Source: Verrucomicrobiota bacterium (lineage in GTDB: Bacteria > Verrucomicrobiota > Verrucomicrobiia > CAIQCK01). Taken from it: a DNA stretch of 64,000 bases. Each line of letters begins with the position of its first letter. Position 1 is the first letter of the stretch. The translations under genes were made by a program, and so were the position numbers. The stretch is taken from the NCBI GenBank assembly GCA_026397915.1, contig JAPLTX010000045.1, forward strand, positions 152,561 to 216,560. The letters run 5' to 3'. The notes below the pieces were generated by a model, which searched no databases, was not told the DNA's origin, and saw nothing but the letters and a program-made list of their open reading frames with translations. Positions 1,396 to 41,548 of the stretch are shown here, in pieces.

Positions 1396-1463
1396 ATTCC
1401 CGCTAACCGCATCCACACGGTTGCGATTCTTGTCCATTTACCAGCGGGCATCGGTGCGCCACA
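1396..1463 (+). promoter_or_regulatory. Conserved upstream element copy A (CCCGCTAACCGCATCCACACGG..GCGATTCTTGTCCATTTACC..GCATCGG) ending at start codon of 1464 gene
   Basis: About 60 nt are near-identical to 7145-7212 and related to 14466-14521; all three sit immediately 5' of plus-strand genes in the CAZyme cluster. Confidence 0.45.
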
Positions 1464-3542
1464 ATGGCCGCGACAATGAACAATGAACTTGCTGGCAGAA
1501 TCGGACGAACCGTCGCGCTGATCCTTGCGACAATCATTGCGCGGCCGGGATTGGTAGTCGCCACCTCCACTGACAAGGACTCGCCTCACCAGATGACCGC
1601 GAGCGGCAAGGCGAGTTCGATCCCACAGGGATATGTTCCGCCGCTGGTGAGCAACGGGAGCCTCTCAATGCTGGTTGACTACCATGGAGGCCAGTCTCAG
1701 CGCGCGTATAGCCGCATGACGCCAGGCATCTGGTGGGCAGGTCGCCGATACGGGCCGCCCAATGACCAACTTATCCCGTTCGGACATTTCGAGTCGGAAC
1801 TGAGCGTTGACGGGAAACGGTGCGCGACGCCGGCGACATGGACGCAGACGCTGGACACAAAAGCAGCGGTTGTAACCTGCCGCAACGATTACGACAACGG
1901 TCTGACGGTTGAGACGGCCGTGCTCACACCGCTCGCCCACGACTTGGTTGTGGTGAAGAAGCGGTTTTACGCGACGAACGCCAGCGTCCGTTCGGTTCGC
2001 ATGGCTTTCAAATACCAATTCACGCCGCCGGGAGACGAGAACCGTCCGCCGAGACGCGTCACCGGTGCCTGCGCGTGGAGCGAGGTGTCCAAGAGCGCGG
2101 AGTTCCGTTATCAGGCGGACGGACATCGGCCTTGCGACGGCATTATCTCGATCTTCTCTGACAAGCCGGTGACCGCAGCCATCAACAAGCAGGCGGTCGG
2201 ATTGACTTCCGAGATCACACTCGATGGGGCCAAACCAGTGGAGGTGACGACCTGTCTGTTGTTCGCGGATTCGCTGGACGGCAAAGACTATCTGGAGCGG
2301 GCGGCGAAGCTGCGCGAGTTGGCGCGGCAGGAGGGCTTTGACGGCTTGTTCGCCGCGCACCGGAAAGCGTGGGCGGCGTATTGGAACGAGTCGTATGTGC
2401 ATGTCCCCGACGAGCGGCTGGAGAAAGCCTACTGCACGGCGCAATATCACCTGCGGGCCAACGCGACGAAGTGGTCGTTTCCGGTCGGGATATTCAACAC
2501 GCACTGGGCGGGCCGGTTTTTCGGCTGGGACGAGCTGTTCTGCTATCAGGCGCTGGTCAGCAGCAATCATCGCGACATTGCGCGGCGTTGTCCGGAGTTC
2601 AGGTTTGCGGGACTGCAAAAGGCGCTCGACCGGGCCAGTCATTACGGCAAGCCGGGGACGTATGGCGCGCGTTATCCGTGGGAGGCGATGGAGGACGGCT
2701 CCGAGGCGGCACCGCCCGGTTTTTGGATGGAGCACGTGTTTCACATCTCGAACATCGCGCTCTCGGCGTGGCTCCAGCACCTCTACACCGAGGACGCGGC
2801 CTATCTCAAGAACACGGGCTACCCGGTGATCAGGGAGTGCGCGCGGTTCTTTCTGACAAACATGGTTTACGAAGCGCCCGACGGCGGCATGTTCATCGGC
2901 AAATGCACCGACTTGGAGCGGCTGGGGCCGGCGCGGCAGAATCCGTTCATGACCTCCTGCGGCGCGATCTACACGCTGGAGGCGTCAGCGCAGGCGGCTG
3001 CGCTGCTCAAGACCGACGACGCCGAAGCCGCGGCATGGAAACACGCCGCCGCGAAGCTGCGCGAGTCACTGCCACACGATGGCAACCGTTACGTCCCCTA
3101 CACAGACTGCAAGGAGGAGAGCGTGGCTTCGCTCGGCGGGCTGTTCCCGTATCCGCTGTTCGATGCGACCGATGCGCGCCAACGGAACGCCGTCTATCAT
3201 TTCGTCGCCAACGGCCGGGCGTCCGGCAACATGTATCCGGTGGGCCAATCGGTCTGCGCGTGGTATGCGGGCTGGATGGCGGCGGCGCTGGCGGCGCTGG
3301 GTGACAAGACTGAGCCGATCAAGCTGCTGGATGAAGCGGCGGCAGGCGCGGGCTGCTTCGGGGAGATGTTCGAGATCAACGAAGCGAAAGTCTCCATGCA
3401 CCCGTGGTTCTCGACCGCGTCGGGGAATGTCGTCTATGCGCTGAACCAGATGCTCGTGCAGAGCCCGCCGTTCCTGAAGCGTGGAAGGACTACTCGTTCA
3501 AACTCGCGTGCCACGGCAATCTCGTGGCGGAGGTCGTGGTGA
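1464..3542 (+). CDS. Glycoside hydrolase, N-terminal beta-sandwich plus (alpha/alpha)6 six-hairpin body (GH65/GH95-like architecture; family not assignable); frame breaks near 3470
   Basis: 692-aa ORF. The FFGWDELFCYQALVSS and WMEHVFHISNIA regions look like a toroid glycosidase core. The last ~20 aa (KRGRTTRSNSRATAISWRRSW) are low-complexity and out of character. The +2 frame ORF 3404..3745 continues with a plausible GH C-terminal beta-sandwich. Confidence 0.6.
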   Translation: MAATMNNELAGRIGRTVALILATIIARPGLVVATSTDKDSPHQMTASGKASSIPQGYVPPLVSNGSLSMLVDYHGGQSQRAYSRMTPGIWWAGRRYGPPNDQLIPFGHFESELSVDGKRCATPATWTQTLDTKAAVVTCRNDYDNGLTVETAVLTPLAHDLVVVKKRFYATNASVRSVRMAFKYQFTPPGDENRPPRRVTGACAWSEVSKSAEFRYQADGHRPCDGIISIFSDKPVTAAINKQAVGLTSEITLDGAKPVEVTTCLLFADSLDGKDYLERAAKLRELARQEGFDGLFAAHRKAWAAYWNESYVHVPDERLEKAYCTAQYHLRANATKWSFPVGIFNTHWAGRFFGWDELFCYQALVSSNHRDIARRCPEFRFAGLQKALDRASHYGKPGTYGARYPWEAMEDGSEAAPPGFWMEHVFHISNIALSAWLQHLYTEDAAYLKNTGYPVIRECARFFLTNMVYEAPDGGMFIGKCTDLERLGPARQNPFMTSCGAIYTLEASAQAAALLKTDDAEAAAWKHAAAKLRESLPHDGNRYVPYTDCKEESVASLGGLFPYPLFDATDARQRNAVYHFVANGRASGNMYPVGQSVCAWYAGWMAAALAALGDKTEPIKLLDEAAAGAGCFGEMFEINEAKVSMHPWFSTASGNVVYALNQMLVQSPPFLKRGRTTRSNSRATAISWRRSW

Positions 3543-3745
3543 AAGGTGGACGGATCGAGAAGCTGATGCTCTTGCCGAACGACGCCAACGCCACGCACCG
3601 GCGAACGCTGGTGCTGCCATCGAGACTGGTCGGCAAAGGCTCGCTCAACGGCCCCGCCGTCAAGGCGACAACGAGCAAGGGAAGCAACTCGCTCATCGCT
3701 GTTGAGTTCAAAGGTCCAACAAACTTGATCGGAGACACGAAATGA
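3404..3745 (+). CDS. C-terminal beta-sandwich segment of the same glycoside hydrolase in the +2 frame (frameshifted continuation; real portion about 3475-3745)
   Basis: Translation ...EAWKDYSFKLACHGNLVAEVVVKGGRIEKLMLLPNDANATHRRTLVLP... is typical of a GH C-terminal domain. It overlaps the upstream ORF by ~140 nt in a different frame and ends 4 nt into the next gene. Confidence 0.45.
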   Translation: MVLDRVGECRLCAEPDARAEPAVPEAWKDYSFKLACHGNLVAEVVVKGGRIEKLMLLPNDANATHRRTLVLPSRLVGKGSLNGPAVKATTSKGSNSLIAVEFKGPTNLIGDTK

Positions 3746-6700
3746 AGCCTCTGTGGATTTGCATCGTCGCGTTGTCGTCGCTTGGGGTCGCCGTCCACGC
3801 GGAGGTTTACACGCTGAAAGACCGGCAGGTCGAGGTGGCGATTGACGAGAAAGGCGACCTGGTTTCGCTGAAGAACCCGCAAACCAATCACGACTACGCC
3901 GGCGGGCGGCCGCTGTGGCGGCTCTATTTCGACCGTAAGGACGGGCAAAAGGAAAACGAGGTCACCGCGTCCGAGAATCGGCCCGCGATCCAGCGCCAAG
4001 ACAATCGCATCGTGTTCCGCTATGACTCGCTGGAGGCTCGCGGCGCGAACCTCCGGATGAAGCTGGTTCTGAGCATCCGGCTGGAGGACGGACTGGTTCG
4101 TTTCGGCTCGGAGCTTTCGAACGATGAACCTCACACAATCATCCGCGAGTTGCACTATCCGCTGGTCGGCGGTTGCCAGTTGCCGGCCGACTGCAAGTTG
4201 CTGACGACGCAGCGCGGCGGCCAGCTCATCGCGAACCCGACGGCCCACATCCTCGGCGTCGGCAACAGTCCGCCCTACATGGCGCCGTCGCAGTTCTACC
4301 GCCAGATGGACCTGAAGTATCCGGGCCACACCTCGGCGAACTGCTTTGCGCTCGTGGGCGGCGGACAGGGGTTGTATCTCGCCAGCCACGACCCGACGTT
4401 CCAAGACACGTGGCACGGGCTGCGCGTTTATCCCGATGCGGCGGGTGCGTGGACTGCGCTGGAGGCCGGCCTCTACAAATACCCGAACTGCGTGAAGGGC
4501 AAGTCGTGGTCATGCGACGCCAACGTGATCGCGCCCTACTCCGGCAGTTGGCACCAGACGTCGAAGCTCTACCGGAAATGGGCCGACACCTGGTGGCGCC
4601 AGCGCGAGGTGCCGCTGTGGGTCCGCAAGATGAAAGGCTGGCAGCGGCTGATTTTCGTTCACCAGTATGGCGAGCAGTTCTTCTCGTTCAGCGACCTGAG
4701 CGGGCGCATCCGCAAGGCAGGCCAGAGCGTCGGCTGCGAAAACGTGCTGGCGTTCGGCTGGTGGAAGGCCGGCATGGACAACGGTTATCCTGACTCGTAT
4801 TGGGTGACCGACGCCGCGCAGGGCGGCGACAAGGCGTGGGCGCAGGAGATCGCCGATTTTCGAAAACAGGGCGGCCGGTTGATGCTCTACTTCAACGGGA
4901 AGCTGATTGATAGCGCGAGCGCGTTCTACCGCAACGGCGACGGCAAGAACGTCTGCTACCACGACAACACCGGCGCGCACTACACGGAGCAATACCGCTT
5001 CAAGGGACTCGGCACCTTCACCGGTCACTACAACGCGCGGACGTTTGTGGTGGCCGACACGCGCCGCGACGAGTGGCGCAAGCAACTCCTGCGGATGGCC
5101 GACCGCGCGATCAGTTTCGGCGTGGACAGCGTGTTCTACGACCAGTTGGGCTATGCCGAAGCGTCCTCGAACTGGGACCTCAGCGGCGAGTTCGCGATTC
5201 CGAACACGCGCGTCATCGCCGACAAGGCGGAGACGTTGAAGATGATCCACGATTATCTCGACAAGAAGGCCAGCCCTGACTTTGCGCTTGGCACGGAGCA
5301 CTGCACGGACGTGACGGCGCAATACGTGGACTATATCCACAACATCACCGGCGCAACCGGCCCGACGGATTTTACCGAGTGGATTCGCTTCACGTTCCCG
5401 GAGGTCATCCTGTCCGACCGCGAAATCCGCGACGACACCGACGTGCCGCGTCGCGTGAACCACGCCCTGCTCAAGGGCCTGCGCAACGACATCGAGATAT
5501 ATCGTTGCCGCGACCTGATAGACAAAGCGCCGAACTACCAGCGTTATCTGGCCCAGGTCAACCGGCTCAAGGAGAAGTATTGCGATCTGCTGCTACTCGG
5601 CGCCTACAAGGACACCGAGGGATTCGCGAACGACAACCCGAAGGTCAACGCCCGCTGTTTCATCAATGGGAATCGCATGGCAGTCGTGGCGACGCAGAGT
5701 TCCCCCAAACCGGCGACGGCGTGCGTTCGCGTGCCGGGCTACACGTTTCAGGAATCAAGCTGCCTCGGCGAGGCCAAACTGGAAACCATGCCTGATGGCG
5801 GTCAGTCTGTGCGTCTCGGCCAACACGGTCTCGCGGTTCTCATCTTCGAGAAAACCAATGCCGCGTTTGCCGTGGCCGACCAGCAACTGCGCGCGAAAGC
5901 CGAGGAGGCGTGGCGCGCCGCGTGGGACCGGTTCTACGACGACCGCACGCATCTTTTTTACGACTACGTTTGCAGCTACGACCCGGCCAAGCGCCTCGCC
6001 GCCCTGCCGACGGCGAAGGAAGCCCGGCGCCAATATCCCAACCCCAACGGCTGGGGCACCGGCATGGAAGATTGCGCCATCAGCGGCGGCTTGATGATGG
6101 CGATGATATGCGACCGTTTCGTGGCCACCAACGATGCGGCTATGCGTCCCCTTGCCGCAAAAGTCTTCGCGGGTCTGGCATCGCTAGTTACGCTTAGTTC
6201 GACCGAGGGCTTTGTCAGCCGCGGCATCTGTCCCAGCGACGGACATTCCCATTACGCCGAGAGTTCCCGCGACCAATACACGTGGCACGTCTATGGCCTG
6301 TGGCGCTACTACCACAGCCCGCTGTCGCAGCCGGAGGAGAAGGCCGCGATACGGAAGATCATCACCGCCATCTGTCGGCGCATGGAGCGCAACATCGTCC
6401 CCGCGAAGAACTACAGCATCGGCAAGGACACAGGCACCTTCGACGGCATCGTGGACAAGATGTGGGAGAACATGGCGCACGAGATCGCGCGTCTGCCGAT
6501 GATCTATGCCATCGGCGCGGACCTAACAGGCGACAGCCATTGGAAGGAACTCGCCCGCCGCTACAGTCCCGAAGCCGTCGCCAAATCGAAGGAGGAATCC
6601 ACGAAGATTCCTTACGCACTGCTGCAAGAACAGGTTTCGCTGGACGCGCTCTACCAACTGGAAGATTCCCCGGAACTGAAGCGGCAGTGGCTGGAGGCGA

Positions 6701-7068
6701 TGCGGTTGGTGGCGGACCGCGCGCAGGTCTTCTTCGCCAAATGCCTCAAATACCAGCCACCGTCAGGCGCGCCATTCTGGTTCGACTGGCGGACCTGGCC
6801 GCTTCGCAAGTCCTCCATCTACCAAGTTCCCACCCGCCCCGACGTCATCATCACGGAGGACCGCACGATTCGTGAGCCAGCCGAGGCGGCGCTGGTGCAA
6901 CTGCTCTGTCCGGAGCGATCGCTGACCCCGGAGCAACTCGCACTTATGAAGCGGATGATTGCCCAAGTGGATTACGACAAGGTTGTCTTCTACGGGCACT
7001 ACTACACGCAGGCCGTCTATTGGCGTGCGGTGCGACTGGGACTGCTTAAGCTTCCGGTCGCGCCCTGA
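3742..7068 (+). CDS. Large secreted putative glycosidase of an uncharacterised family; paralog of 14552..16708. N-terminal ~700 aa is the paralog-shared domain, C-terminal ~400 aa is an extra helical (toroid-like) domain
   Basis: Signal peptide MKPLWICIVALSSLGVAVHA. Shares motifs with the 14552 ORF: SGSWHQTSKLYRKWADTWW vs TGTWHTAAKFYRAWFDSV, LAFGWWKAGMDNGYPDSY vs LGLFGWAHGGHDHLYPDY, RFTFPEV in both. The C-terminal part carries NPNGWGTGMEDCAISGGLMMA. Confidence 0.7.
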   Translation: MKPLWICIVALSSLGVAVHAEVYTLKDRQVEVAIDEKGDLVSLKNPQTNHDYAGGRPLWRLYFDRKDGQKENEVTASENRPAIQRQDNRIVFRYDSLEARGANLRMKLVLSIRLEDGLVRFGSELSNDEPHTIIRELHYPLVGGCQLPADCKLLTTQRGGQLIANPTAHILGVGNSPPYMAPSQFYRQMDLKYPGHTSANCFALVGGGQGLYLASHDPTFQDTWHGLRVYPDAAGAWTALEAGLYKYPNCVKGKSWSCDANVIAPYSGSWHQTSKLYRKWADTWWRQREVPLWVRKMKGWQRLIFVHQYGEQFFSFSDLSGRIRKAGQSVGCENVLAFGWWKAGMDNGYPDSYWVTDAAQGGDKAWAQEIADFRKQGGRLMLYFNGKLIDSASAFYRNGDGKNVCYHDNTGAHYTEQYRFKGLGTFTGHYNARTFVVADTRRDEWRKQLLRMADRAISFGVDSVFYDQLGYAEASSNWDLSGEFAIPNTRVIADKAETLKMIHDYLDKKASPDFALGTEHCTDVTAQYVDYIHNITGATGPTDFTEWIRFTFPEVILSDREIRDDTDVPRRVNHALLKGLRNDIEIYRCRDLIDKAPNYQRYLAQVNRLKEKYCDLLLLGAYKDTEGFANDNPKVNARCFINGNRMAVVATQSSPKPATACVRVPGYTFQESSCLGEAKLETMPDGGQSVRLGQHGLAVLIFEKTNAAFAVADQQLRAKAEEAWRAAWDRFYDDRTHLFYDYVCSYDPAKRLAALPTAKEARRQYPNPNGWGTGMEDCAISGGLMMAMICDRFVATNDAAMRPLAAKVFAGLASLVTLSSTEGFVSRGICPSDGHSHYAESSRDQYTWHVYGLWRYYHSPLSQPEEKAAIRKIITAICRRMERNIVPAKNYSIGKDTGTFDGIVDKMWENMAHEIARLPMIYAIGADLTGDSHWKELARRYSPEAVAKSKEESTKIPYALLQEQVSLDALYQLEDSPELKRQWLEAMRLVADRAQVFFAKCLKYQPPSGAPFWFDWRTWPLRKSSIYQVPTRPDVIITEDRTIREPAEAALVQLLCPERSLTPEQLALMKRMIAQVDYDKVVFYGHYYTQAVYWRAVRLGLLKLPVAP

Positions 7069-7144
7069 GAGTCGAGCCTGCAACGCCGAAGAAGAAAAGC
7101 AAGAACCCCATGGCAGCCGCTAGCGATTGAAGCTCGCAACAATT

Positions 7145-7212
7145 CCCGCTAACCGCATCCACACGGAAGCGATTCTTGTCCATTTACCGCAAGGCATCGG
7201 GTGCTTCATAAT
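7145..7212 (+). promoter_or_regulatory. Conserved upstream element copy B; ends in a 4-codon mini-ORF (ATGGCCTCGATATGA) overlapping the SDR ATG
   Basis: Near-identical to 1396-1463, including CA(C/T)AATGGCC. Confidence 0.45.
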
Positions 7213-7221
7213 GGCCTCGAT

Positions 7222-7980
7222 ATGAAAACCGAACTGAACGGGAGGATCGCGCTCGTGACGGGCGCGGGACAAGGCATTGGACGGGCCATCGCGCTCGCGC
7301 TCGCGGCGCATGGCGCGACGGTGGCTGTCAACGACGTGAAGCGTGAGAAGAGCGACAAGGTCATCGCGGAGATCGTTCCGGCTGGCGGCAAAGCCGTGGC
7401 GGCCTGCGCGGATGTTTCGCGGCGCGATGAAGTGGAGCGGATGGTTGGCGGCATCGTGAAGCAGTTCGGCCGGCTCGATATCCTCGTCAACGGCGCGCGC
7501 GTCGAACCGCCGCGGCCGGCGGGGATGGCACCGGAGGATTGGTGGGACCGCGTGCTTGACGTGGATCTCAAAGGTGCGTGGCTCTGTTCGATGGGGGCGC
7601 TGGAACCGATGAAACGCCAACAGTTCGGCCGTATCATCAACATCTCTTCGATTCAAGGTTTCACCGGCAACGCCGAGGAAGAATGGATCGCTTACAGTTG
7701 CGCCAAGGCTGGCATGGGCGGGCTGACACGCTCACTGGCGCAGGCCGGCCTGAAGCTCGGCATTACCGCCAACGCCATCGCGCCAGATTACATCGAAACC
7801 GAAGTGATGGAGGCGCGTTGGGGGCGCGAGAAGATGAGCGAGTTTGCCGCCGGCGTGCCGATGGGCCGTGCGGGCCAGCCGGAGGAAGTCGCCGAGGCGG
7901 TCCTGTTCCTCGTAAAGTCAGGCTTTATCACCGGCGAGACAATCTTCATCACAGGAGGGAGATTTGTTATTCCAAAGTAG
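7222..7980 (+). CDS. SDR-family NAD(P)-dependent oxidoreductase (FabG-like; candidate 2-keto-3-deoxy sugar-acid dehydrogenase)
   Basis: Rossmann TGAGQGIGRAIA, NNAG-like motif, catalytic YSCAKAG (YxxxK). The ORF opens at GTG 7201; ATG 7222 (MKTELNGRIALVTGAG) is the more typical start. Confidence 0.85.
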   Translation: MKTELNGRIALVTGAGQGIGRAIALALAAHGATVAVNDVKREKSDKVIAEIVPAGGKAVAACADVSRRDEVERMVGGIVKQFGRLDILVNGARVEPPRPAGMAPEDWWDRVLDVDLKGAWLCSMGALEPMKRQQFGRIINISSIQGFTGNAEEEWIAYSCAKAGMGGLTRSLAQAGLKLGITANAIAPDYIETEVMEARWGREKMSEFAAGVPMGRAGQPEEVAEAVLFLVKSGFITGETIFITGGRFVIPK

Positions 7981-8043
7981 TCGTCACGCTCCGCGTGACG
8001 GCAATCAACACACAACATCACGCGGAGCGTGATGACTACTATG
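7978..8043 (+). promoter_or_regulatory. Intercistronic palindromic hairpin element copy 1: TAG-TCG-[TCACGCTCCGCGTGA]-19 nt loop-[TCACGCGGAGCGTGA]-TGACTACT-ATG
   Basis: Perfect 15-bp inverted repeat 7984-7998/8018-8032. It sits between the SDR stop codon and the dehydratase ATG. The same element recurs at 46131-46202. Confidence 0.6.
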
Positions 8044-9201
8044 AAAATCACCGCAATCAAAACCTTTCTCTGCGACGCCTACCGCACAAATCTGTCGTTC
8101 GTCAAAATCGAGACCGACGCCGGTCACCACGGCTACGGCGAGATGACGCTCGAATTTCACGACCGCGCCGTCCTCGGCTGCATCGAGGACCTGACGCCGT
8201 CGTGGATCGGCCGCGACCCGATGGATATCGAGGCGCTCTGGCACGACTCCTACCGCGATGCTTACTGGCGGGGCGGGCCAGTGCTCTCGACCTCGCTTGC
8301 CGCGTTGGAGATGGCGTGCTGGGACATCAAGGGCAAGGCGCTCGGCCAGCCCGTCTGGCAATTGCTCGGCGGCAAGTGCCGCGACCGCGTGCGTTGTTAC
8401 GCCAACGCGTGGTTCGTGCCGGCAAAGACGCCTGCCGAGTTTGCCGCGAAGGCGAAGGAAGCCATCGCGCGCGGCTGGAAGGCGCTGAAGTGGGACCCGT
8501 TCGGCAGCGCGCATCGCGACATCACGCGCGCGGAGCTGCTCAACGCCGTGCGTTGTGTGGCTGCGGTGCGCGAGGCAGTCGGCGAAACCGACCTGCTCAT
8601 CGAAGGCCACGGCCGGTTCAACATCGAGAGCGCGCTGCGGGTCGGCAACGCGCTTGCCGAATTCGATATCCTGTGGTTTGAGGAACCGCTCTTCCCGGAA
8701 CTGCTCGACGCGCTGGCGGAACTGAAACGCCGCGTGCCGGTGCCCATCGCGGCCGGCGAGCGCATCTACACGCGTTTCCAAGCGCGCGAGTTCATCGAGA
8801 AACGCTGCGGCGATTTCATCCAGCCCGACATCAGCCGCGTCGGCATCAAGGAACTGCGCCTCATCGGCGGCATGGCTGAGGCGGCGGGCATCAGTTTCTG
8901 CCCTCACAATCCCGCCGGCCCGATTACCAACATGGCCACGCTGCACATCGCCGCTTCCACGCCGAACTTCTTCCTGCTGGAGACGATGGCGAACGATGTG
9001 CCGTGGCGCAGCGAATTCAGTGATGAGGACGTGCGCATCGTGGATGGCGAGATGCTTATCCCGACGCGCCCCGGCCTCGGCATCGAGTTGAACGAAGAGG
9101 CGATCGCAAAGCATCCGCCGAAGCGCCACCACCTCCGCCACTACCGCGGCGACCTCACCGCCATCCGGCCCACCAACGCAACGGAGTGGTTCAAGCGTTA
9201 G
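8041..9201 (+). CDS. Enolase-superfamily (mandelate racemase/muconate lactonizing enzyme family) sugar-acid dehydratase (D-galactonate/L-fuconate/rhamnonate dehydratase-like)
   Basis: MKITAIKTF... N-terminus, LAALEMACWDIKGKALGQPVWQLLGG, FEEP metal-ligand region; 387 aa. Confidence 0.85.
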   Translation: MKITAIKTFLCDAYRTNLSFVKIETDAGHHGYGEMTLEFHDRAVLGCIEDLTPSWIGRDPMDIEALWHDSYRDAYWRGGPVLSTSLAALEMACWDIKGKALGQPVWQLLGGKCRDRVRCYANAWFVPAKTPAEFAAKAKEAIARGWKALKWDPFGSAHRDITRAELLNAVRCVAAVREAVGETDLLIEGHGRFNIESALRVGNALAEFDILWFEEPLFPELLDALAELKRRVPVPIAAGERIYTRFQAREFIEKRCGDFIQPDISRVGIKELRLIGGMAEAAGISFCPHNPAGPITNMATLHIAASTPNFFLLETMANDVPWRSEFSDEDVRIVDGEMLIPTRPGLGIELNEEAIAKHPPKRHHLRHYRGDLTAIRPTNATEWFKR

Positions 9202-9222
9202 AACCGCAAGGAAGACGCGAGC

Positions 9223-12096
9223 ATGAGGAAGTTAATTCTCCGTATCGCCTCGCTGCTCGCGCTTGCGACCCTGCTTGCATGGCAGGCGCGCGGCGCGGAA
9301 ACCACGACGTTGTATGTCGCCACCTGCGGCAACGACGTCTGGTCTGGAAAACTGGCCAAGCCGAACGCCAAGAAGACGGATGGACCGTTTGCCACAATTG
9401 AGCGAGCGCGCGACGCTGTTCGTGTAATGAAGCGAAACGGCAAGCTGCCGAAAGGTGGCGTTGTCGTGGAGGTTCTCGCGGGCAGATATGAGATCGCCAA
9501 GCCGGTCGAACTTGTAGCGGAGGATTCCGGGACTGCTGAGTCGCCTGTCATCTATCGCGCGCGGCGGGGCGATACGGTTCACCTCAGCGGCGGACGCGTC
9601 GTGACTGGATGGAAACCAGTGACCGATCCGGTGGCGGTCGGCCGTTTGGATCCCGTTGCACGCGGCAAGGTGTTTCAGGCCGACCTGCGCGTGCTGGGCG
9701 TGACGGAATACGGCGACCTAGGTCTGGACGCGGCGGCGGGGTTGCAGTTGTGGCTGGCAAAGGTTGACAGTCAAGGCGAGGACGTGATTGGCAGCGCACT
9801 CGCCAGCCAGGGCAAGACAGTCAAGCCGCGACTGGAGGTTTTCTTCGACGACCAGCCGATGGAACTGTCGCGCTGGCCTAATGATGACTTCATCAAGATT
9901 CAGGAGGTGCTGGGCAAAACGGAAATCAACGTCCGCGGCACGAAAGGCTGCAAGGAAGGCATCTTCGTTTACGAAGGTGACCGGCCGAAACGTTGGGTGA
10001 ACGAACAAGACGCCTGGGTGGAGGGGTATTGGTTTCGCGACTGGGCCGTGCAGCGTCACAAGATCGCCTCGCTCGAAACGGAGAAACGCATCATCTCGGT
10101 GACGCCACCCTATCACTATTACGGATACCGCAAGGGGCAATGGTTCCGCGGATTCAATCTACTAAACGAGATTGATGAGCCCGGCGAATGGTATATAGAC
10201 CGGCAGGCGGGGATTCTTTACTTCTGGCCACCGGGCGAACTGGAACGTGGGCGCGTGGAGGTATCGATGGCCCCAGGACTGTTCACGTTGACAGAAGCGT
10301 CGCACGTCACCATCCGCGGGTTGTTGTTCGAGGCGGCGCGCAGCACGGCCATCACAATCAAGGGCGGCCAGCAATGCCGTGTTATCGGCTGCACGTTTCG
10401 CAATCTGGGCAATCACGCCATCACGATCTTTGATGGCAAGGAGAATGGCGTCATCGGCTGCGACATGTATGGCATGGGCGGCGGCGGGATTTATCTCGGC
10501 GGCGGCGACCGGAAGCTGCTCACACCGGCCGGGCACTTTGCCGAGAACAACCACATCCACCATTTCGGCCGATGGGACCGCATGTATCGGCCCGGCCTGT
10601 TCCTGAGCGGCGTAGGTCTGCGCGCGTCACACAACCTGATTCACGACGCGCCACACTCGGCGATCTTGTTTGGCGGCAACGACCACCTGATCGAGTTCAA
10701 CGAAATCCACAACGTCTGCTTCGAATCGCATGACTGCGGCGCGATCTATGCCGGCCGGAGTTGGACCCTTCGCGGTCACGTGATCCAACGTAACTACCTC
10801 CACCACATCTACGGAAAATCGGGCGGGCCCTGCAACGGCATCTACCTCGACGACCTGTTCTCGTCGGCCACGGTGCAGGGAAATGTGTTCTTCCAAGTGC
10901 TGCGGCCCGTGTTCCTCGGCGGCGGACGGGACAACATCATCCAGAACAACGTTTTCGTGGATTGTCCCAAGGCGATGCATTTGGACGCCCGCGCGCTCGG
11001 CTGGTGCGCTCCGCACGCCGACGGACGCATCAAGGAAGCCATCGAGAAAGGCACTATCGCTGGCGTCCGTTACAGAGAGCCACCGTTCAGCATGCGCTAT
11101 CCACAACTTGTCGGCCTGCTCGACGACGAGCCGAAGAAGCCAAAGGGAAATATCGTTCGCCGAAACATCTTCTGGCAGGGACGCGGTGAGAACCTCCGCC
11201 GCGTGGCAAACGGCCAACCTATAAAAGAGACGTGGTGGGACGACATTGAGCCGAAGGTCCGAGCGCTGGTGAAGATCGAGGACAATCTCATCAACGAAGA
11301 CCCGAAGTTTGTGAACGAGAGGACCAGCAACTTCCAGCTTCGCGAGGACTCGCCGGCCTGGAAACTCGGATTCGAGCGGATTCCCGTGGAGAACATCGGG
11401 CTATACCGTGACGACTGTCGGACGAGCTGGCCGGTGAAACATCCGGTTCGTGTCGTGACCGCTTCTGCAACGCTGAAACTCCTGTTCCTAGGCAACAGCA
11501 TTACCCGGCACGGACCGAAGCAGGACATCGGCTGGTCTGGCAACTGGGGCATGGCGGCCAGCGCGGAGGAAAAGGATTTCGTGCATCTCGTCGCGAGCGC
11601 CCTCGGCAAGACAGCGGGCGCTGGGCCCGAAGTGATGATTAGGAACATTTCTGAATTCGAGCGGCAATACGCAACCTTTGACGCGGAGGCGAAGTTGAAG
11701 GACACATTCGCGTTCGGTGCTGACATCATCGTTGTCGCGATTGGCGAGAACGTGCCGAGCCTGAATTCTGACGAAGCCAAGGTTCAGTTCGCAGCCAGCC
11801 TGAGAAAACTGTTGCGGGGCTTGAAGACCGACAAACACCCCACCCTCGTCGTGCGAAACTGCTTCTGGCCGAGCCAGGCCAAGGATCAGGTTCTCAAACA
11901 AGTCTGCCAAGAAGCGGGTGGAATCTTTGTGGACATCGGACAGCTCGCCAAAGACGAATCCAACTATGCGCGCTCGGAGCGCAAGTTCGTCCACAGTGGC
12001 GTGGCGGCGCATCCGGGTGACAAGGGCATGGCGGCCATCGCCAATGCGATTCTGGACGCGATCAGCAAACATCAAGGAAAGAACACGAACAAATGA
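9223..12096 (+). CDS. Secreted right-handed beta-helix (pectate-lyase-fold) protein fused to a C-terminal SGNH/GDSL esterase domain
   Basis: Signal peptide, then repeated beta-helix-type segments (NIIQNNVF, NIVRRNIFWQG). C-terminal LKLLFLGNSITRHG ... DKGMAAIANAI is SGNH-like. Confidence 0.7.
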   Translation: MRKLILRIASLLALATLLAWQARGAETTTLYVATCGNDVWSGKLAKPNAKKTDGPFATIERARDAVRVMKRNGKLPKGGVVVEVLAGRYEIAKPVELVAEDSGTAESPVIYRARRGDTVHLSGGRVVTGWKPVTDPVAVGRLDPVARGKVFQADLRVLGVTEYGDLGLDAAAGLQLWLAKVDSQGEDVIGSALASQGKTVKPRLEVFFDDQPMELSRWPNDDFIKIQEVLGKTEINVRGTKGCKEGIFVYEGDRPKRWVNEQDAWVEGYWFRDWAVQRHKIASLETEKRIISVTPPYHYYGYRKGQWFRGFNLLNEIDEPGEWYIDRQAGILYFWPPGELERGRVEVSMAPGLFTLTEASHVTIRGLLFEAARSTAITIKGGQQCRVIGCTFRNLGNHAITIFDGKENGVIGCDMYGMGGGGIYLGGGDRKLLTPAGHFAENNHIHHFGRWDRMYRPGLFLSGVGLRASHNLIHDAPHSAILFGGNDHLIEFNEIHNVCFESHDCGAIYAGRSWTLRGHVIQRNYLHHIYGKSGGPCNGIYLDDLFSSATVQGNVFFQVLRPVFLGGGRDNIIQNNVFVDCPKAMHLDARALGWCAPHADGRIKEAIEKGTIAGVRYREPPFSMRYPQLVGLLDDEPKKPKGNIVRRNIFWQGRGENLRRVANGQPIKETWWDDIEPKVRALVKIEDNLINEDPKFVNERTSNFQLREDSPAWKLGFERIPVENIGLYRDDCRTSWPVKHPVRVVTASATLKLLFLGNSITRHGPKQDIGWSGNWGMAASAEEKDFVHLVASALGKTAGAGPEVMIRNISEFERQYATFDAEAKLKDTFAFGADIIVVAIGENVPSLNSDEAKVQFAASLRKLLRGLKTDKHPTLVVRNCFWPSQAKDQVLKQVCQEAGGIFVDIGQLAKDESNYARSERKFVHSGVAAHPGDKGMAAIANAILDAISKHQGKNTNK

Positions 12097-13220
12097 GAAG
12101 AGTGAATGTGCGTGCAACGATGATTCTGGCGGTCAGCTTGCTGACTCTGGCCGGGTGGGTATGGGACGCGGAAGCTCAGGACACAAAGCCCCGCATGAAG
12201 CTCGGCGCGTATTACTTCGCGGGATGGGCGGGCAAGTGCGCCTTCGACGACGGCACGGCAGAGAACGCTTGGGCCAAAGGAATGCCGACACACTACACCA
12301 AGAAGCTGGCCACCGAGTTCGCGGGTCGCACGCCGCTCTGGGGCTGGCGCGACGACACGCCGGAGTTGATGGAGCGGCAGATCGCCCTCGCGGCCGACCA
12401 CGGCGTGGCGTTCTTCTCGTTCTGCTGGTATTGGCACGACAACAAAGGCCCGATCAACACCAAGTCCATCGAGGACGACCCGAAGCATGTGCCCATGCGG
12501 CTGTTCATGCAGGCGAAGAACAACAAGCGGATGGAGTTCTGCCTGCTGGTGGCAAATCACGGCGGGTTTGAGATTGTTGGGCTGGAGGCGTGGAAACAGG
12601 CAGCCGACTATTGGTTGACGCTGTTCAAACATCCGAGCTATCTGCGCGTGGATGGCAAACCGTTGTTGGTGATCTTCTCGCCGCGAGGCGCCAACAAGGA
12701 GGGTCTGACCTATCTACAAGAGGCTGCGCGCAAGGCGGGCTTCCCGGGCGTGGCAGTCACAGGTTGCGCCAGCGGCAAATCCGAAGACGGGTTTTCGCTG
12801 CGGACGAACTACAACGTGACGCCGAAGGGGACGTGGGCCAGCAAGAACTCCGAAAGACACCCCTACCAGGAATTGGTCGAGGCGAACCTCCAAGCATGGC
12901 AGGGCACGCCCAGCCAACAGTTCATTCCTGTGGCGACGCAGGGTTGGGATCGCCGGCCGTGGGAAGGAATCGGCGGTCTGGGACCGAAAGGCTCGACGGT
13001 CTCGTGGTATTACGACAAAGGCACACCCGAAGCGTTTGGCGGGATGCTGACGAAGATGGCGCAGTGGATGGACGCGAACCCGGCACTGGCGACCAAGGAC
13101 CGGCTGGCGCTGATCTACGCGTGGAACGAAATTGGCGAGGGCGGTTGGCTGGTGCCGTGTAAGGACGACCCGGACGGCGCGTATCTGAAGACCATCCGCC
13201 GCATCGTTCTGGGCAAGTGA
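12093..13220 (+). CDS. GH99-like / WbsX-domain protein (endo-alpha-mannosidase-like family)
   Basis: Signal peptide; LGAYYFAGW, FCWYWHD, ATQGWDRRPW, AWNEIGEGGW motifs typical of the GH99-like/WbsX fold. ATGA overlap with the upstream gene. Confidence 0.7.
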   Translation: MRRVNVRATMILAVSLLTLAGWVWDAEAQDTKPRMKLGAYYFAGWAGKCAFDDGTAENAWAKGMPTHYTKKLATEFAGRTPLWGWRDDTPELMERQIALAADHGVAFFSFCWYWHDNKGPINTKSIEDDPKHVPMRLFMQAKNNKRMEFCLLVANHGGFEIVGLEAWKQAADYWLTLFKHPSYLRVDGKPLLVIFSPRGANKEGLTYLQEAARKAGFPGVAVTGCASGKSEDGFSLRTNYNVTPKGTWASKNSERHPYQELVEANLQAWQGTPSQQFIPVATQGWDRRPWEGIGGLGPKGSTVSWYYDKGTPEAFGGMLTKMAQWMDANPALATKDRLALIYAWNEIGEGGWLVPCKDDPDGAYLKTIRRIVLGK

Positions 13221-13246
13221 GAAGAACCGGTAGGAAGCATTCTGCA

Positions 13247-14443
13247 ATGAAGACCAAACACACGTTGACGTCATTTTGCGTGATGGGCGTGATGGGCATG
13301 CTCACGCTTTGCGCTGGAGAACAATCCGGCCAGAGTCGCCCACTGGTCGGAGCAATTCGATGGGACGCGTGGTATGGAGATCTTCCCGCGTCGGCGCGAC
13401 CGCCGACCTCGGTCGAGTTCCCGGGATTCGACGCCACGCGCAACCGAAAGGTAAGCCAGGATCCCGGCAAGGAGACGCGGCGCTCGCTCGCCGCGGAACA
13501 GTGGCGTTACCGCTGGCCATTTTTCACGGTGCTCGCGCCGGACGGGAGCGCGAACGACTTCAACGAGAACAAGACGAACGTGATCGAACAGGAGATCGAG
13601 TATGCCCTCCACGCTGGCTTGGACTACTGGGCGTTCACGGCGTATCCCGAAAACTGCCCGCTGAGCTACACGCTCAAAACGTTCCTGACCTGCAAGAACC
13701 GCGACAAGCTCAAGTTCTGCCTGTTCCTGCCGATGTGGCCGGCTTACGGGCGCATCGCGAACGCCGAGGCGGAAGAGGCGTATTGGGCGCACGTATTGCG
13801 GCTGGTCCGACAACCCAATTACCTGAAGGTTGAGGGAAACCGGCCGGTGTTTTATCTGGGGTTCCTGAATGACCAACTGGTCGAGAAGCTCCTCGCCGGG
13901 CCGTGGCCGAAGTTCTGCGCCGAGTTGGCGAAGCGTGGTTTCGGGAAACCGTGGGTGGCGATCTGTCACGGCGGCGCGAAAGCGGCCAAACGGTATTGCG
14001 ACATGCTGCAAGGCGACGCGCTGAGCCAATACGCCGTCGGCGGCAGCGCGAAGGCGGGGTCGTTTTCCGAGCTGGCCGCGCGCGCGGAGAAATTCTGGGA
14101 GGACTGCGCAGCCACGGGAGCGCCGGTCGCTCCGATTTGCATGGCCGGTTGGGATCGCCGCCCGCGCGTGACGAACCCGGTCTCGTGGGAGGACTTTCAC
14201 CTGAAACCGGACGCCTTCGAGCTTTACTACAAGCCCGGCACTCCCAACGAGATTGCCGCCCACGTCGGGCGCGGCACCTCGTGGTTTAAGAAGCATCCCA
14301 CCAAGAACGGCGTCGAGCTGGTGCTCATCTACGCGTGGAACGAATTCGACGAAGGCGGCTGGCTCGCTCCGGCGCTTCCTCCGCCGCACGGTGAAGGCAC
14401 GGCCCGCGTTGACGCGCTCCGCAAGGTTCTCGTGTCGCACTGA
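13247..14443 (+). CDS. GH99-like / WbsX-domain protein, tandem paralog
   Basis: MAGWDRRPR, YAWNEFDEGGWL; signal peptide after ATG 13247 (the ORF opens at GTG 13217, overlapping the previous stop). Confidence 0.7.
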   Translation: MKTKHTLTSFCVMGVMGMLTLCAGEQSGQSRPLVGAIRWDAWYGDLPASARPPTSVEFPGFDATRNRKVSQDPGKETRRSLAAEQWRYRWPFFTVLAPDGSANDFNENKTNVIEQEIEYALHAGLDYWAFTAYPENCPLSYTLKTFLTCKNRDKLKFCLFLPMWPAYGRIANAEAEEAYWAHVLRLVRQPNYLKVEGNRPVFYLGFLNDQLVEKLLAGPWPKFCAELAKRGFGKPWVAICHGGAKAAKRYCDMLQGDALSQYAVGGSAKAGSFSELAARAEKFWEDCAATGAPVAPICMAGWDRRPRVTNPVSWEDFHLKPDAFELYYKPGTPNEIAAHVGRGTSWFKKHPTKNGVELVLIYAWNEFDEGGWLAPALPPPHGEGTARVDALRKVLVSH

Positions 14444-14465
14444 GGTCGTCGGGACTGGCTCGGGC

Positions 14466-14521
14466 AAACCGCTAACCGCATCCACACACACGCGATTTTC
14501 ATCCCTTTACCGACGAGCAGC
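14466..14521 (+). promoter_or_regulatory. Conserved upstream element copy C (divergent variant: CCGCTAACCGCATCCACACACACGCGATTTTCATCCCTTTACC)
   Basis: Shares the CCGCTAACCGCATCCACAC ... GCGATT ... TCC.TTTACC blocks with copies A and B. Confidence 0.4.
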
Positions 14522-14551
14522 GTGTCGCACATACTGCGGCGCATGAACTCG

Positions 14552-16708
14552 ACACGCGCTCCGCAGCCTCGGCGTTTCCCTCTTCGCATCCTTCTCCTGG
14601 CAACGGCCACACTTCTGACAGGCTCGTTGGCGACGGCGGCCAGCTTAAAGACTCCGAGCGGGACGCTGACAGTGGACGAGCGCGGGCTGAGCCTCGCGCC
14701 GCGTGACCCGGCGTGTCCGGCCATCGTCGCCCAAGGCGGGCCGATGTGGTCGCTCAGGCTTCAGACCCCGGCACGACAGATTCTGCTGCTGTCCACAGGC
14801 CAAAAACCACGACACGAAACATCCGCCGATAGCTTGCGGCTGGTCTACGAGAGCCTCACCGACGGCACGAACACCTGGAAGGTTGGCCTGACGCTGAACT
14901 TCCGCCGCAAGCAGGACGCGTTTGAGATCAGCGGCGAGCTGCGCAACAACAGCGAAGGAGTCATGGTCAGCGACCTGGCCTGCGTCGCACTCTCAGGCAT
15001 CGCGGCTCCGCCGGAGACGCATCCGTTGCTCTGGCCGAACGGTCTGGGCCAACGATTCGGCGCGGGCAGCAAGCCCGCCGAGCGCACGTTCCCCTACCCC
15101 AGCCGGACCGGCACGATGCAATGGTGCGCGTTCGCAGGCGAGCGCGGTGGCCTCTATGTCGGCTGCCACGACGCCACTCACAGCGCGAAGACTTTCGCGT
15201 CGCGATTCAATCCAAAGACGCGGCAGTCAACGTTGGCGATCCGTCATCAACTGTTCTGCGCCAGCGGCGGGCGCTGGACGTTACCTCCGACCGTGCTGCT
15301 GCCATACACCGGCACGTGGCATACGGCGGCGAAGTTCTACCGGGCGTGGTTCGATTCGGTCGCGAAGGTGCGTCCGCAACTCGATTGGGTGCGCGACGCG
15401 TCGGGCTGGCTGCTGTGCATCCTCAAGCAGCAGAACGGCTCGGTGATGTGGGATTACCCGTCGCTTGAACAACTCGCCGACATCGCGGACCAGCGCGGGC
15501 TGGACATCCTCGGCTTGTTCGGTTGGGCGCACGGCGGGCACGACCATCTTTACCCCGATTACATCCCCGACCCGCAGATGGGCGGTCCGGAGGTGTTGCG
15601 CCGCGCGTTGAAGGAAGTCCGACGCCGCGGCAAACGCTCCATCATCTACGCCAACGGCCAGCTGATGGACATCGCCACGGAGTATTACCGCACGCAAGGC
15701 AAAGATCAGGCGGTGCTGCGCGAGGACGGCACGCCCGTGCGCCAGAATTGGCAGAAGTTCAGGAGCTTCCCGCCGGTGAAATGCGCGCTCGCGTGTCAGG
15801 CGGCCGAGGGCTGGCGCAAGCGGATGTTCGAGCTGGCGCAGCAGGCACAGGAACTCGGCGCAGACGGCATCCTCTTCGACCAACTCGGCGTGACAGGGCC
15901 GATGCCGTGTTGGGCCAAGAATCACGGCCACCCGTCGCCAGCGGTGGTCTATGCGGGCGAACGCGCTGCTTGGCTGCGCCGCGTGGCCGACGAGATGAAA
16001 CGCATCGCGCCGGAGTTTATCGTGATGACGGAGGGCATCCACGACAGCGTGCTCGATTCGGTTCCGCTGTTCCACGGTTGCATGGTCGGTGTCTTCACCC
16101 CCACCGAGAAGGAGATGGCGTCGCATCTGGATGGAACCGGCACCGACCCGACATTCCCGGAAATGTTCCGCTTCACGTTCCCCGAAGTGCTGATGACCCA
16201 GCGCCACCCGACGCCGATGCTGGACCGGTTGGGCGCCAACTACGCGTGCGTCTATGGCCTGCGCTACGAGATCGAAAGCCGCTACGCTCCCGACGTTCGG
16301 TATCTGAAGGAAGGCGCAATCCCCACGCGCGCCGATTACGCGGACGTTCTGAATCCACCAAACATCCCGATGATGGCCGCCACGCCGCCCGCCGAGGCGA
16401 CGCGCTACCTCAAGCAACTGATCGAGTTCCAGCGGCGTCACACTGCGTTGTTGTGGCGCGGACGGTTTGTGGATGATCGCGGCTTCCAGTTCAAAGGCGA
16501 GCGACTCATCGCCAAAGCCTATGCCGCCGGCAACCAACTCGGCGTGCTCGTCTGGAACCCGACCGACACACCTGCGACATTCTCGCTGACCGTCCCGAAA
16601 GCTCGACTCACGGCCGTCGCCGAACCGGAGCGCGATCAAGTCAAAGCCTTCAGTCCTCTGCCCGCCCAGACGATCCGGCTGTTGGTCTGGCAGGAACAGA
16701 AACACTGA
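14552..16708 (+). CDS. Secreted putative glycosidase of the same uncharacterised family as 3742..7068 (paralog, single-domain form)
   Basis: Signal peptide MNSTRAPQPRRFPLRILLLATATLLTGSLATAAS; shared motifs listed under 3742..7068; 718 aa from ATG 14552. Confidence 0.7.
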   Translation, partial: TRAPQPRRFPLRILLLATATLLTGSLATAASLKTPSGTLTVDERGLSLAPRDPACPAIVAQGGPMWSLRLQTPARQILLLSTGQKPRHETSADSLRLVYESLTDGTNTWKVGLTLNFRRKQDAFEISGELRNNSEGVMVSDLACVALSGIAAPPETHPLLWPNGLGQRFGAGSKPAERTFPYPSRTGTMQWCAFAGERGGLYVGCHDATHSAKTFASRFNPKTRQSTLAIRHQLFCASGGRWTLPPTVLLPYTGTWHTAAKFYRAWFDSVAKVRPQLDWVRDASGWLLCILKQQNGSVMWDYPSLEQLADIADQRGLDILGLFGWAHGGHDHLYPDYIPDPQMGGPEVLRRALKEVRRRGKRSIIYANGQLMDIATEYYRTQGKDQAVLREDGTPVRQNWQKFRSFPPVKCALACQAAEGWRKRMFELAQQAQELGADGILFDQLGVTGPMPCWAKNHGHPSPAVVYAGERAAWLRRVADEMKRIAPEFIVMTEGIHDSVLDSVPLFHGCMVGVFTPTEKEMASHLDGTGTDPTFPEMFRFTFPEVLMTQRHPTPMLDRLGANYACVYGLRYEIESRYAPDVRYLKEGAIPTRADYADVLNPPNIPMMAATPPAEATRYLKQLIEFQRRHTALLWRGRFVDDRGFQFKGERLIAKAYAAGNQLGVLVWNPTDTPATFSLTVPKARLTAVAEPERDQVKAFSPLPAQTIRLLVWQEQKH

Positions 16709-16740
16709 CCGGCGCACCGGCGTTTGTTATACTCCCCACC

Positions 16741-17448
16741 ATGAAATCATCCATCGTCCTTCTCGCATCCCTCGTCGCTGTTGCCGCGTTTGCTGCCGAA
16801 CCGGCCGGCTACTACAGCCGCACCATCTTCTCCGATGACTTCAGCAGCAACAGCTTCGGCCCGCGCTGGGGTCACTACAAGAGCGGCAGCATCGTCAAGG
16901 ACGGCGTGCTCATCGGCATCACGCCGGAGAAATCCGACCACTCTGCGGTGGATAACATCCGGTTTCCGGGCGAGCGCGACCTGGAGGTGTCGGTGAAGTT
17001 CCGGTTCGTCAGCGAAAAGGCGAAGAGCTTCAACGTCTGGTTCGACGACAAGGACTACAAAGGTTCCCACGCCGGCCACATTTGCAGCGTCAGCGTCAGC
17101 CCGGCGGCCGTGAACATCGCCGATGCGAAGACGGGCAACTTTTGCAATAGCATCTACGAAAAGCGAAAATCCCCCGCGGGACTGAGCGATGCGGACAAGG
17201 CGTTTCTGCAAACCAAGTCCAAGAGCCAGCCCGTGAAGCTGACGTTGCAGGACTGGCATACGCTGGTGGCCCGCACGAGGGCCGACAGCGTCGAAGTCTG
17301 CCTCGATGGGAAAGTAGTAGGGACATTCCAGTCCGAAGGCATCGGCCACGACCATAAGACACTGGTGAGTCTGACGACCAATCCCGTGGACGTCCATTAC
17401 GACGACTTCAGCATCAAGGCTGGCGGCAACGCTGCGGCCAAGCCCTGA
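16741..17448 (+). CDS. Secreted ConA-like lectin/glucanase-fold protein (DUF1080-like)
   Basis: Signal peptide, 235 aa, beta-rich; assignment by general resemblance only. Confidence 0.45.
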   Translation: MKSSIVLLASLVAVAAFAAEPAGYYSRTIFSDDFSSNSFGPRWGHYKSGSIVKDGVLIGITPEKSDHSAVDNIRFPGERDLEVSVKFRFVSEKAKSFNVWFDDKDYKGSHAGHICSVSVSPAAVNIADAKTGNFCNSIYEKRKSPAGLSDADKAFLQTKSKSQPVKLTLQDWHTLVARTRADSVEVCLDGKVVGTFQSEGIGHDHKTLVSLTTNPVDVHYDDFSIKAGGNAAAKP

Positions 17449-21990: not shown

Positions 21991-21993
21991 CTC

Positions 21994-41400: not shown

Positions 41401-41548
41401 TTGCCACAGGTAAGCTGTCCCCCAAGCGAAAATGAGTCCGGTCCGAGGCATCTGCCGGCTTGGACATGGTTTTGCCCCCCCTCTGACAAGCCAAGGTCAG
41501 CCTTGGACAAGCCATCTTTCGTCCCGCCAATAACCAAATCCGCGAAGG

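Follow-up and report, generated by a model that had tools for sequence, protein, structure and literature searches.

What governs the plus-strand cluster of carbohydrate-active enzyme (CAZyme) genes in a 64,000-nt stretch of a Verrucomicrobiota bacterium genome (contig JAPLTX010000045.1, positions 152,561 to 216,560; hereafter the window)? The question is raised by a conserved element that recurs immediately upstream of genes in this cluster. A first-pass annotation of the window had described three copies and suggested that they mark three co-regulated transcription units sharing one promoter or operator, with a role as an RNA leader considered equally plausible. Our results point to a promoter. 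We propose, with a probability of roughly 0.62, that the element is a module of ~85 nt that serves as an activator-dependent, sigma-70-type promoter of one glycan-degradation regulon, probably bound by a regulator of the AraC/XylS family (here termed AraC-V) and mostly giving rise to leaderless mRNAs.

The element family and its architecture

In the window, which has a G+C content of 61.5%, the 19-mer CCGCTAACCGCATCCACAC occurs exactly at positions 1400, 7146 and 14469, each time on the plus strand, whereas 100 dinucleotide-preserving shuffles gave an expected count of 0. A second block, GCGATTYTNNTCCMTTTACC (0.06 expected), follows all three at the same spacing and reads GCGATT-YTNN-TCCMTTTACC in the copies. 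A repeat finder grouped 1396-1454, 7142-7200 (90%) and 14465-14523 (71%) into one family, in agreement with a three-way alignment. These copies, defined as A, B and C, occupy three of the four larger intergenic gaps in the plus-strand cluster, and a profile built from 57 copies recovered no additional one in the window, weak ones included. Given the three exact matches, the expectation of none and the constant position just upstream of a gene, the repeated element of the first-pass annotation is real. Its limits required small corrections. Copy B begins at 7142 or 7146 rather than 7145, and copy C, which had been ended at 14521, runs on via CATACT to the ATG at 14543 (Table 1). The ATGGCC reported at equal spacing in copies A and B is present, but the reading of a conserved ATG does not stand: these letters are the last two bases of a -10-like hexamer and the next G. 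The four-codon ORF described in copy B (MASI*; 7211-7225, ATG GCC TCG ATA TGA) was confirmed, and it begins within that hexamer.

We scanned one genome per species with GCTAACNNNNTCCACACNNNNGCGNTT, which gave 55 loci (designated by L numbers), and fetched extra loci via proteins; the scanned species representatives exclude the window's own genome, as none of copies A, B and C was returned. The first survey comprised 64 distinct pattern sites. Four of them, in non-Verrucomicrobia and without the rest of the element, are chance matches, and every other match continues with the proximal block, TTTACC and a -10-like hexamer at positions that were not forced by the pattern. Using relaxed patterns, we identified 71 distinct copies in at least 12 Verrucomicrobia metagenome-assembled genomes (MAGs), with up to 10-11 copies per genome; proteins of the element-bearing genomes are 77-95% identical to those of the window. 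All of the ~70 copies directly precede a gene of the same orientation and none was found at a random position, as expected if they mark co-regulated units with a common promoter or operator.

The orthologous locus L001 (proteins ~87% identical) has five copies, three of which precede genes that have no copy in the window or are missing from it. The closest relative among the loci is L021, in which the orthologue of window gene g1 is 94.7% identical. L021 has an extra copy, located two genes before the site that corresponds to copy A, and the window's genome therefore probably contains a fourth one, ~2.6 kb to the left of the window. Four canonical copies were also found on DYDC01 contigs (L022, L050 and L056) labelled "Methylacidiphilum sp.", along with the same major facilitator superfamily (MFS) and dehydrogenase genes as in other Verrucomicrobia MAGs; these contigs may have been misbinned or given the wrong taxonomic label.

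Per-position information content, calculated for 61 copies, revealed a sharp 5' edge. It is ~0 bits until 3 nt before GCTAAC, after which 43 contiguous positions have 0.4-2.4 bits, mostly >0.8, ending with TTTACC and including positions that the search pattern left free. The scan pattern fixed 18 positions, and the uniformity of the block is in part ascertainment. The following spacer of 17 or 18 nt and the discriminator have merely 0.1-0.5 bits and the hexamer has 0.9-2.4 bits. Seven positions past the hexamer are again at 0.2-0.5 bits, the eighth nucleotide is A in 53 of 68 copies, and conservation stops there. A hexamer of the form NA[TCA][AG]NT was detected 17 nt (31 copies) or 18 nt (37 copies) past TTTACC in 68 of the 71 copies, compared with a chance rate that we estimate at ~5% per site. 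The hexamer types include CATACT (43), CATAAT (9), CACAAT (5) and CACACT (4), and the -35-like TTTACC equals TTGACA at four of six positions. Thus, 68 of 71 copies have the spacing of sigma-70-type promoters, with -35 and -10 hexamers 17 ± 1 nt apart and A and T at the second and sixth positions of the -10. A generic sigma-70 promoter scan picks out copy B as TTTACC-18-CATAAT.

With the conserved A taken as +1, the block extends from approximately -73 to -32. The putative distal box CGCTAACCGCATCCA is then at -73 to -59 and is nearly invariant. The putative proximal box CGCGATTCTTGTCCA is at -52 to -38, abutting TTTACC, and is of three types: CTTGTCCA, TTYRTCCC and TTTDGCYA. AraC/XylS-activated promoters have an activator site of ~35-40 bp that abuts or overlaps a weak -35, and the conserved block is placed in this way. 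The distance of the hexamer to the upstream block is fixed while that to the start codon varies from 6 to >30 nt among copies, as expected of a promoter but not of a leader. Around orthologous copies the flanking sequence is randomised although the encoded proteins stay 77-95% identical, and we thus conclude that the element is under purifying selection. In combination, these results indicate that the element is very probably a sigma-70-type promoter with an upstream regulator site.

Two other features were considered and rejected. An imperfect inverted repeat (AACCGC...GCGATT) is not kept across copies as an internal symmetry, and the GG-N10-GC motif of a sigma-54 promoter is not conserved in the spacer. 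We also noted "half" copies, consisting of the proximal part, the -35 and -10 and a leaderless ATG, at L025 2376, L001 20806, L014 6666 and L016 7730. A decayed copy at L029 4102 has kept the distal part and lost TTTACC.

Start codons and probably leaderless messages

The in-frame ATGs behind copies A, B and C (1476, 7222 and 14543) are 10, 9 and 7 nt past the hexamer and have no Shine-Dalgarno sequence. Among 59 copies, the start codon is 7 nt past the -10 in about half and 9 nt past it in about ten, also without a Shine-Dalgarno sequence. Overall, the ATG is 7-10 nt past the -10 in three quarters of the copies and 12 to >30 nt past it in the remaining quarter. In most copies, including copy C, the conserved A is the first base of the ATG, and in copies A and B the start codon is 2-3 nt further. 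If transcription begins at this A, which is in or near the ATG, the mRNA would be leaderless or nearly so. The conserved A is retained in copies with a 20-45-nt leader. GGAG precedes the ATG by 8-9 nt in four of the longer leaders (L008, L016, L018 and L030), and AGGA or GGAG is found ahead of the clusters' internal genes in the window. Based on these patterns, most transcripts of the element are likely to be leaderless.

For the gene behind copy A (g2), the start is most likely the ATG at 1476 rather than that at 1464, as orthologues begin with MNN... at the matching ATG and position 1464 is inside the -10 hexamer. Exact-sequence look-ups of the products predicted from either start returned no record. 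The start at 14543 is that of an identical public protein (P0001, 721 aa). Two other sigma-70-like promoter stretches in the window have no upstream block: CTGACC-17-TATACT-7-ATG before g10 (16705-16743, start 16741) and TTGCGA-18-TAGACT-6-ATG before a DUF554 gene (21960-21996, start 21994). Leaderless starts may be common in this organism.

The layout resembles that of promoters for leaderless mRNAs in Actinobacteria and Deinococcus, where the -10 precedes the start codon by ~7 nt. A TANNNT-like hexamer is found 6-10 nt before the ATG, there is no Shine-Dalgarno sequence, and leadered and leaderless genes occur in the same genome. Unlike in those groups, the start site at the Verrucomicrobia element is predicted from sequence alone. 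Full-text literature searches for leaderless transcription in Verrucomicrobia gave nothing relevant, the single match being a general start-site database, and to our knowledge leaderless starts have not been documented experimentally in this phylum.

Candidate regulator and rival readings

A signature screen of all loci identified, in three MAGs, a 321-aa AraC-family gene located directly upstream of an element copy and on the same strand. The protein, AraC-V, has AraC_binding/cupin and HTH_18 domains (precomputed Pfam) with two helix-turn-helix motifs, and its DNA-binding domain resembles ordinary AraC-family structures. Further AraC-V homologues were fetched via the protein, and are hence free of the bias of the DNA pattern; a metagenome scan with the regulator gave eight loci, too few for statistics. 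In five lineages, 77-99% identical (L048/L062, L020/L066, L040/L065, L067 and L068), the stop codon of AraC-V is the TAA of GCTAAC. The gene downstream of the element differs in each of them: a 1706-aa protein, the GDSL orthologue of window g1, a 311-aa protein, a 1137-aa protein and one unassigned gene.

Two members of a diverged branch of the regulator (49-57% identical), one of which is P0146, are each followed by a diverged element (L059 and L071). These elements have the distal box GGATCGTCCAT in place of the canonical AACCGCATCCAC and retain the TCCA cores, the T-rich proximal part and the -10. Elsewhere, the variant box GGATCGTCCAT gave nothing above chance level in the window, and L009 has one match, which lies within coding sequence. 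As the linkage outlives the turnover of downstream genes, and as regulator and box differ in step, AraC-V may well be the protein that recognises the conserved block.

Where the AraC-V gene ends within the element (L048 1036, L020 3697, L040 1246 on the minus strand, L062 and L065-L068), the 5' edge of the conserved block is coding sequence for the final residues of the protein (..P-R-x-R). The family also has an invariant C-terminal tail, RGPFFTI.P.

We propose the following model, in which four points are inferences: which sigma factor acts, where transcription starts, that the block mediates activation and not repression, and which protein binds it. Each ~85-nt copy would switch on one transcription unit of the regulon. 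A housekeeping sigma-70-type RNA polymerase would use the weak -35 TTTACC and the good -10 (CATACT/CAYAAT), 17-18 nt apart, and would begin transcription at the conserved A ~8 nt past the -10. The block upstream of the -35 (approximately -73 to -38) would be the site of a dedicated activator, namely AraC-V, whose dimer would contact the distal box with one monomer and the proximal box, next to the -35, with the other.

Several observations weigh against this model. Of nine lineages, three (L063, L064 and L070) lack an element next to AraC-V, although two of these are in genomes with 9-10 copies elsewhere, and a third, more diverged member of the diverged branch, P0147 (L072), has no element behind it. 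Pfam analysis of ~40 window proteins and the signature screen revealed no regulator gene in the window, and no canonical AraC-V orthologue of the window's own genome was seen. The internal 21-bp repeat (CGCnAnnCnnnTCCA twice) that would correspond to two half-sites is the best self-alignment offset, with shuffle p = 0.2 there and 0.87 over all offsets; it has no statistical significance and is not claimed. Conservation across the 43-nt block is more even than is usual for operators of a regulon. Finally, a XylR-like gene lies behind a 702-aa element-driven target, in convergent orientation, in L005 (6367-7548, minus strand) and L042 (65-1267). The encoded protein (394-401 aa) has a periplasmic-binding-protein-like (sugar-binding) domain and an AraC helix-turn-helix, and is a second candidate regulator.

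These findings could be accommodated by the same sigma-70-type promoter with the block bound by another protein, such as the XylR-like one, an unlinked regulator or a repressor, AraC-V then being a frequent neighbour that is absent near most copies. We consider this unlikely, though it is the most serious of the alternatives. AraC-V and the element stay paired through the five changes of downstream gene, and the regulator branch and the box sequence diverge together. A repressor is disfavored by the location of the block at -73 to -38 beside a weak -35, which is the usual place of an activator, and the XylR-like protein by the linkage of its gene to one target family only.

The block could itself be a promoter for an extracytoplasmic function (ECF) sigma factor, an option that the first-pass annotation had put forward for comparison. 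With GCTAAC as the -35 and GCGATT as the -10, the start site would be ~50 nt ahead of the ATG, and TCCATTTACC...CATACT would either belong to a 5' leader or form a second promoter in tandem. The phylum Verrucomicrobia is rich in ECF sigma factors, and AAC-N16-CG is the spacing of their promoters. The AAC-N16-CGA of the block fits this type and counts against the model above. We nonetheless regard an ECF promoter as improbable and retain it as a minor rival. The 15-nt "spacer" is almost invariant, unlike ECF spacers, even in copies that were found through the protein, and both AAC and CGA are replaced in the variant elements of L059 and L071. The TTTACC-17/18-CATACT-A geometry would be left unexplained, and there is no RNA structure. 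A crude signature screen of low sensitivity found no ECF sigma gene in ~60 loci, which is weak evidence.

We rejected the possibility that the element acts as RNA, be it a conserved 5' leader, an attenuator, a riboswitch or a regulatory upstream ORF (uORF), as very improbable. What recommended it is that the element reaches the start codon in copies A and B, and that the four-codon ORF in copy B has a stop overlapping the dehydrogenase start. However, the whole window has no Rfam match at gathering thresholds, and there is none over the elements at E <= 1. Single-sequence folds of the element are ordinary compared with shuffles (mean z -0.7), and a consensus fold of 20 copies, calculated as a check for covariation, has -1.35 kcal/mol, three pairs and no compensatory change. 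An ATG at the hexamer needs CAYAAT followed by G and is missing from 43 of 68 copies (CATACT), and the mini-ORF of copy B shifts in length or vanishes in orthologues. Conservation ends near the -10, and the hexamer follows the upstream block rather than the start codon.

A non-regulatory repeat, either a mobile element like REP (repetitive extragenic palindrome) or MITE (miniature inverted-repeat transposable element) sequences or a recombination remnant, would suit the many copies per genome and the flanking coding sequence common to some of them, but is equally improbable given the lack of terminal inverted repeats and target duplications, the strict orientation toward the next gene and distance to its start, and the orthologous positions kept between genomes with wholly diverged flanks.

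The arrangement proposed for AraC-V has parallels in characterised systems. The MtlR site at PmtlE of Pseudomonas fluorescens spans -72 to -58 and -50 to -36 (PMC4514859), compared with approximately -73 to -59 and -52 to -38 for the boxes of the element. The MtlR site covers at least 37 bp with two similar 15-bp blocks and, like the proposed activator site of the element, lies directly upstream of the -35 and serves sugar catabolism (PMC4514859). Unlike at PmtlE, the two putative boxes of the element are only weakly alike, and their sequences are unrelated to those bound by MtlR; the element also occurs ~10 times per genome and mostly drives predicted leaderless mRNAs. XylS binds two 15-bp direct repeats at Pm, each made up of box A-N6-box B, with the two short boxes of a half-site about one helical turn apart (PMC5481539). 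The putative half-sites of the element would have the same build. AraC-V shares with XylS, and with AraC at araI1-I2 (pBAD), the cupin-type sensor and two helix-turn-helix motifs, and in all three the proximal half-site, which is putative in the element, touches or overlaps a weak -35. In contrast to these systems, the 21-bp direct repeat of the element is not statistically demonstrable, the AraC-V gene is co-directional and ends inside the site in several lineages rather than being divergent, and no looping site like that of AraC is evident. For AraC, the distal half-site is the better conserved, as is the putative distal box of the element.

Polysaccharide utilization loci of Bacteroidota with hybrid two-component systems also place glycan clusters under AraC-type DNA-binding domains, and one Protein Data Bank match of the AraC-V DNA-binding domain is a Bacteroidota hybrid two-component protein. 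Here, however, there is no SusC/SusD pair, sensor kinase or receiver domain, and the regulon is distributed over several loci. Bacteroidota promoters are of the -33/-7 type, as opposed to the sigma-70-like -35/-10 of the element. Full-text literature searches for a described Verrucomicrobia promoter or AraC regulon gave nothing relevant.

Genes behind the element and apparent spread of the module

The coordinates of the three copies and of the genes that follow them are given in Table 1. The genes behind copy A, g2 and g3, are probably a single transcription unit. The unit behind copy B comprises g4-g8 (7222-14443), and the same gene order is found in L001.

Table 1. Element copies and downstream genes in the window.
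Feature	Position	Strand	Details and basis
Copy A, 43-nt conserved upstream block CCGCTAACCGCATCCACACGGTTGCGATTCTTGTCCATTTACC	1400-1442	+	Exact 19-mer and second block; per-position conservation over 61 copies
Copy A, putative distal box	1401-1415	+	
Copy A, putative proximal box	1422-1436	+	
Copy A, -35-like TTTACC	1437-1442	+	
Copy A, -10-like hexamer CACAAT	1460-1465	+	17 nt past TTTACC; conserved A at 1473
g2, six-hairpin glycoside hydrolase (GH65/GH95-like), MNNELAGR...	1476-3542	+	Pfam; orthologue N-termini
g3, DUF6259	3742-7068	+	Own GGAG Shine-Dalgarno
Copy B, 43-nt conserved upstream block	7146-7188	+	-35-like TTTACC at 7183-7188
Copy B, -10-like hexamer CATAAT	7207-7212	+	18 nt past TTTACC; conserved A at 7220
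g4, short-chain dehydrogenase	7222-7980	+	Pfam; start 9 nt past copy B -10
g5, enolase-superfamily dehydratase	8032-9201	+	Pfam
g6, beta-helix plus GDSL	9223-12096	+	Pfam
g7, WbsX-like	12093-13220	+	Pfam
g8, WbsX-like	13247-14443	+	Pfam
Copy C, 43-nt block, "type 2" proximal variant GCGATTTTCATCCCTTTACC	14469-14511	+	-35-like TTTACC at 14506-14511
Copy C, -10-like hexamer CATACT	14530-14535	+	18 nt past TTTACC; eighth nt after it is the A of ATG 14543
g9, DUF6259 with signal peptide, MNSTRAPQ...	14543-16708	+	Pfam; identical public protein

Across the family, the hydrolases encoded behind copies are GH65/95-like, DUF6259, GH39/42-like (with or without a LamG domain), alpha-galactosidase and GHL6-like. 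Also found behind copies are esterases, GDSL hydrolases, alpha/beta hydrolases, a transporter of the MFS type, a dehydrogenase/dehydratase pair, which we take to be of the type used in non-phosphorylative sugar-acid catabolism, and several proteins without a Pfam match. The element-headed genes form one regulon of glycan degradation and sugar catabolism.

Sequence adjoining the block is in some cases common to copies that precede different genes. Window copies A and B have in common the spacer GGCATCGG(G)TGC and the discriminator, though g2 and g4 are unrelated. Type 2 copies precede five or six unrelated proteins and have a common GC-rich discriminator and N-termini of the form M-[NST]-S-[TI]-[RS]. 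The element plus ~57-60 nt of coding sequence (signal peptide MNSIR.A.LA.LASLM) is common to L001 15096-15230 and L028 2883-3020, where it fronts a GHL6-like hydrolase (the orthologue of window g11) and an alpha-galactosidase, respectively. In the counterpart genomes both genes are operon-internal, have no element and encode other signal peptides; this includes g11 of the window (17466). Given the spacers, discriminators and first codons common to unrelated genes, the module seems to have spread by duplication or recombination, carrying the start codon and part of the signal peptide with it.

Tentatively, the module could be a portable expression cassette, with activator site and promoter coupled to a leaderless start and the initial codons or a signal peptide, that spreads within and between genomes of the group and wires unrelated secreted enzymes into one regulon when operons break or rearrange, rather than each promoter evolving its own site. 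If true, this would be regulon growth by copy-and-paste. In the upstream homology box of Borrelia and the vlp 5' regions of Mycoplasma, a promoter and first codons or signal peptide are likewise common to genes with differing mature parts. Those cassettes serve antigenic-variation families of related lipoproteins, whereas the element fronts unrelated enzymes of one catabolic regulon.

Other repeats were noted in the window. A palindromic hairpin repeat of ~80 nt occurs twice (7967-8047 and ~46130-46205), each time in a short gap between co-directional genes and with its 3' arm reaching the start codon. The arm core TCACGCGGAGCGTGA has four exact matches (0.5 expected). In Rfam, the hairpin has only sub-threshold miRNA-precursor look-alikes, on both strands, and the copy at 7967-8047 is unrelated to the element. 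It could be a REP/MITE-like sequence or an intercistronic processing or stability hairpin. Two non-coding tandem arrays were also found. One (41507-41758) has a 42-nt period and at least six A-rich units (AAAAGGTWAATGGAG...), and the other (39844-40041) has three units of 66 nt and lies shortly before the esterase gene at 40199. Internal repeats, 159 nt and ~900-930 nt long, occur at 58.0-62.3 kb of the window inside and between genes for TPR-repeat proteins.

The element adds a new case to a known type of regulation and does not overturn current understanding. What sets it apart is how long and uniform it is, that its transcripts are probably leaderless and that it seems to spread like a cassette. 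A long and easily searched motif, it flags operons of a single glycan-degradation regulon in one uncultured, CAZyme-rich Verrucomicrobia group from groundwater and lake metagenomes. Co-regulated genes, including those for DUF6259 proteins and proteins without a Pfam match, can thereby be predicted from sequence alone. The suggested leaderless first genes of operons bear on the calling of start codons, as for 1476 versus 1464. In a phylum for which genetic tools are scarce, the regulator and its promoter are candidates for a system of inducible expression.

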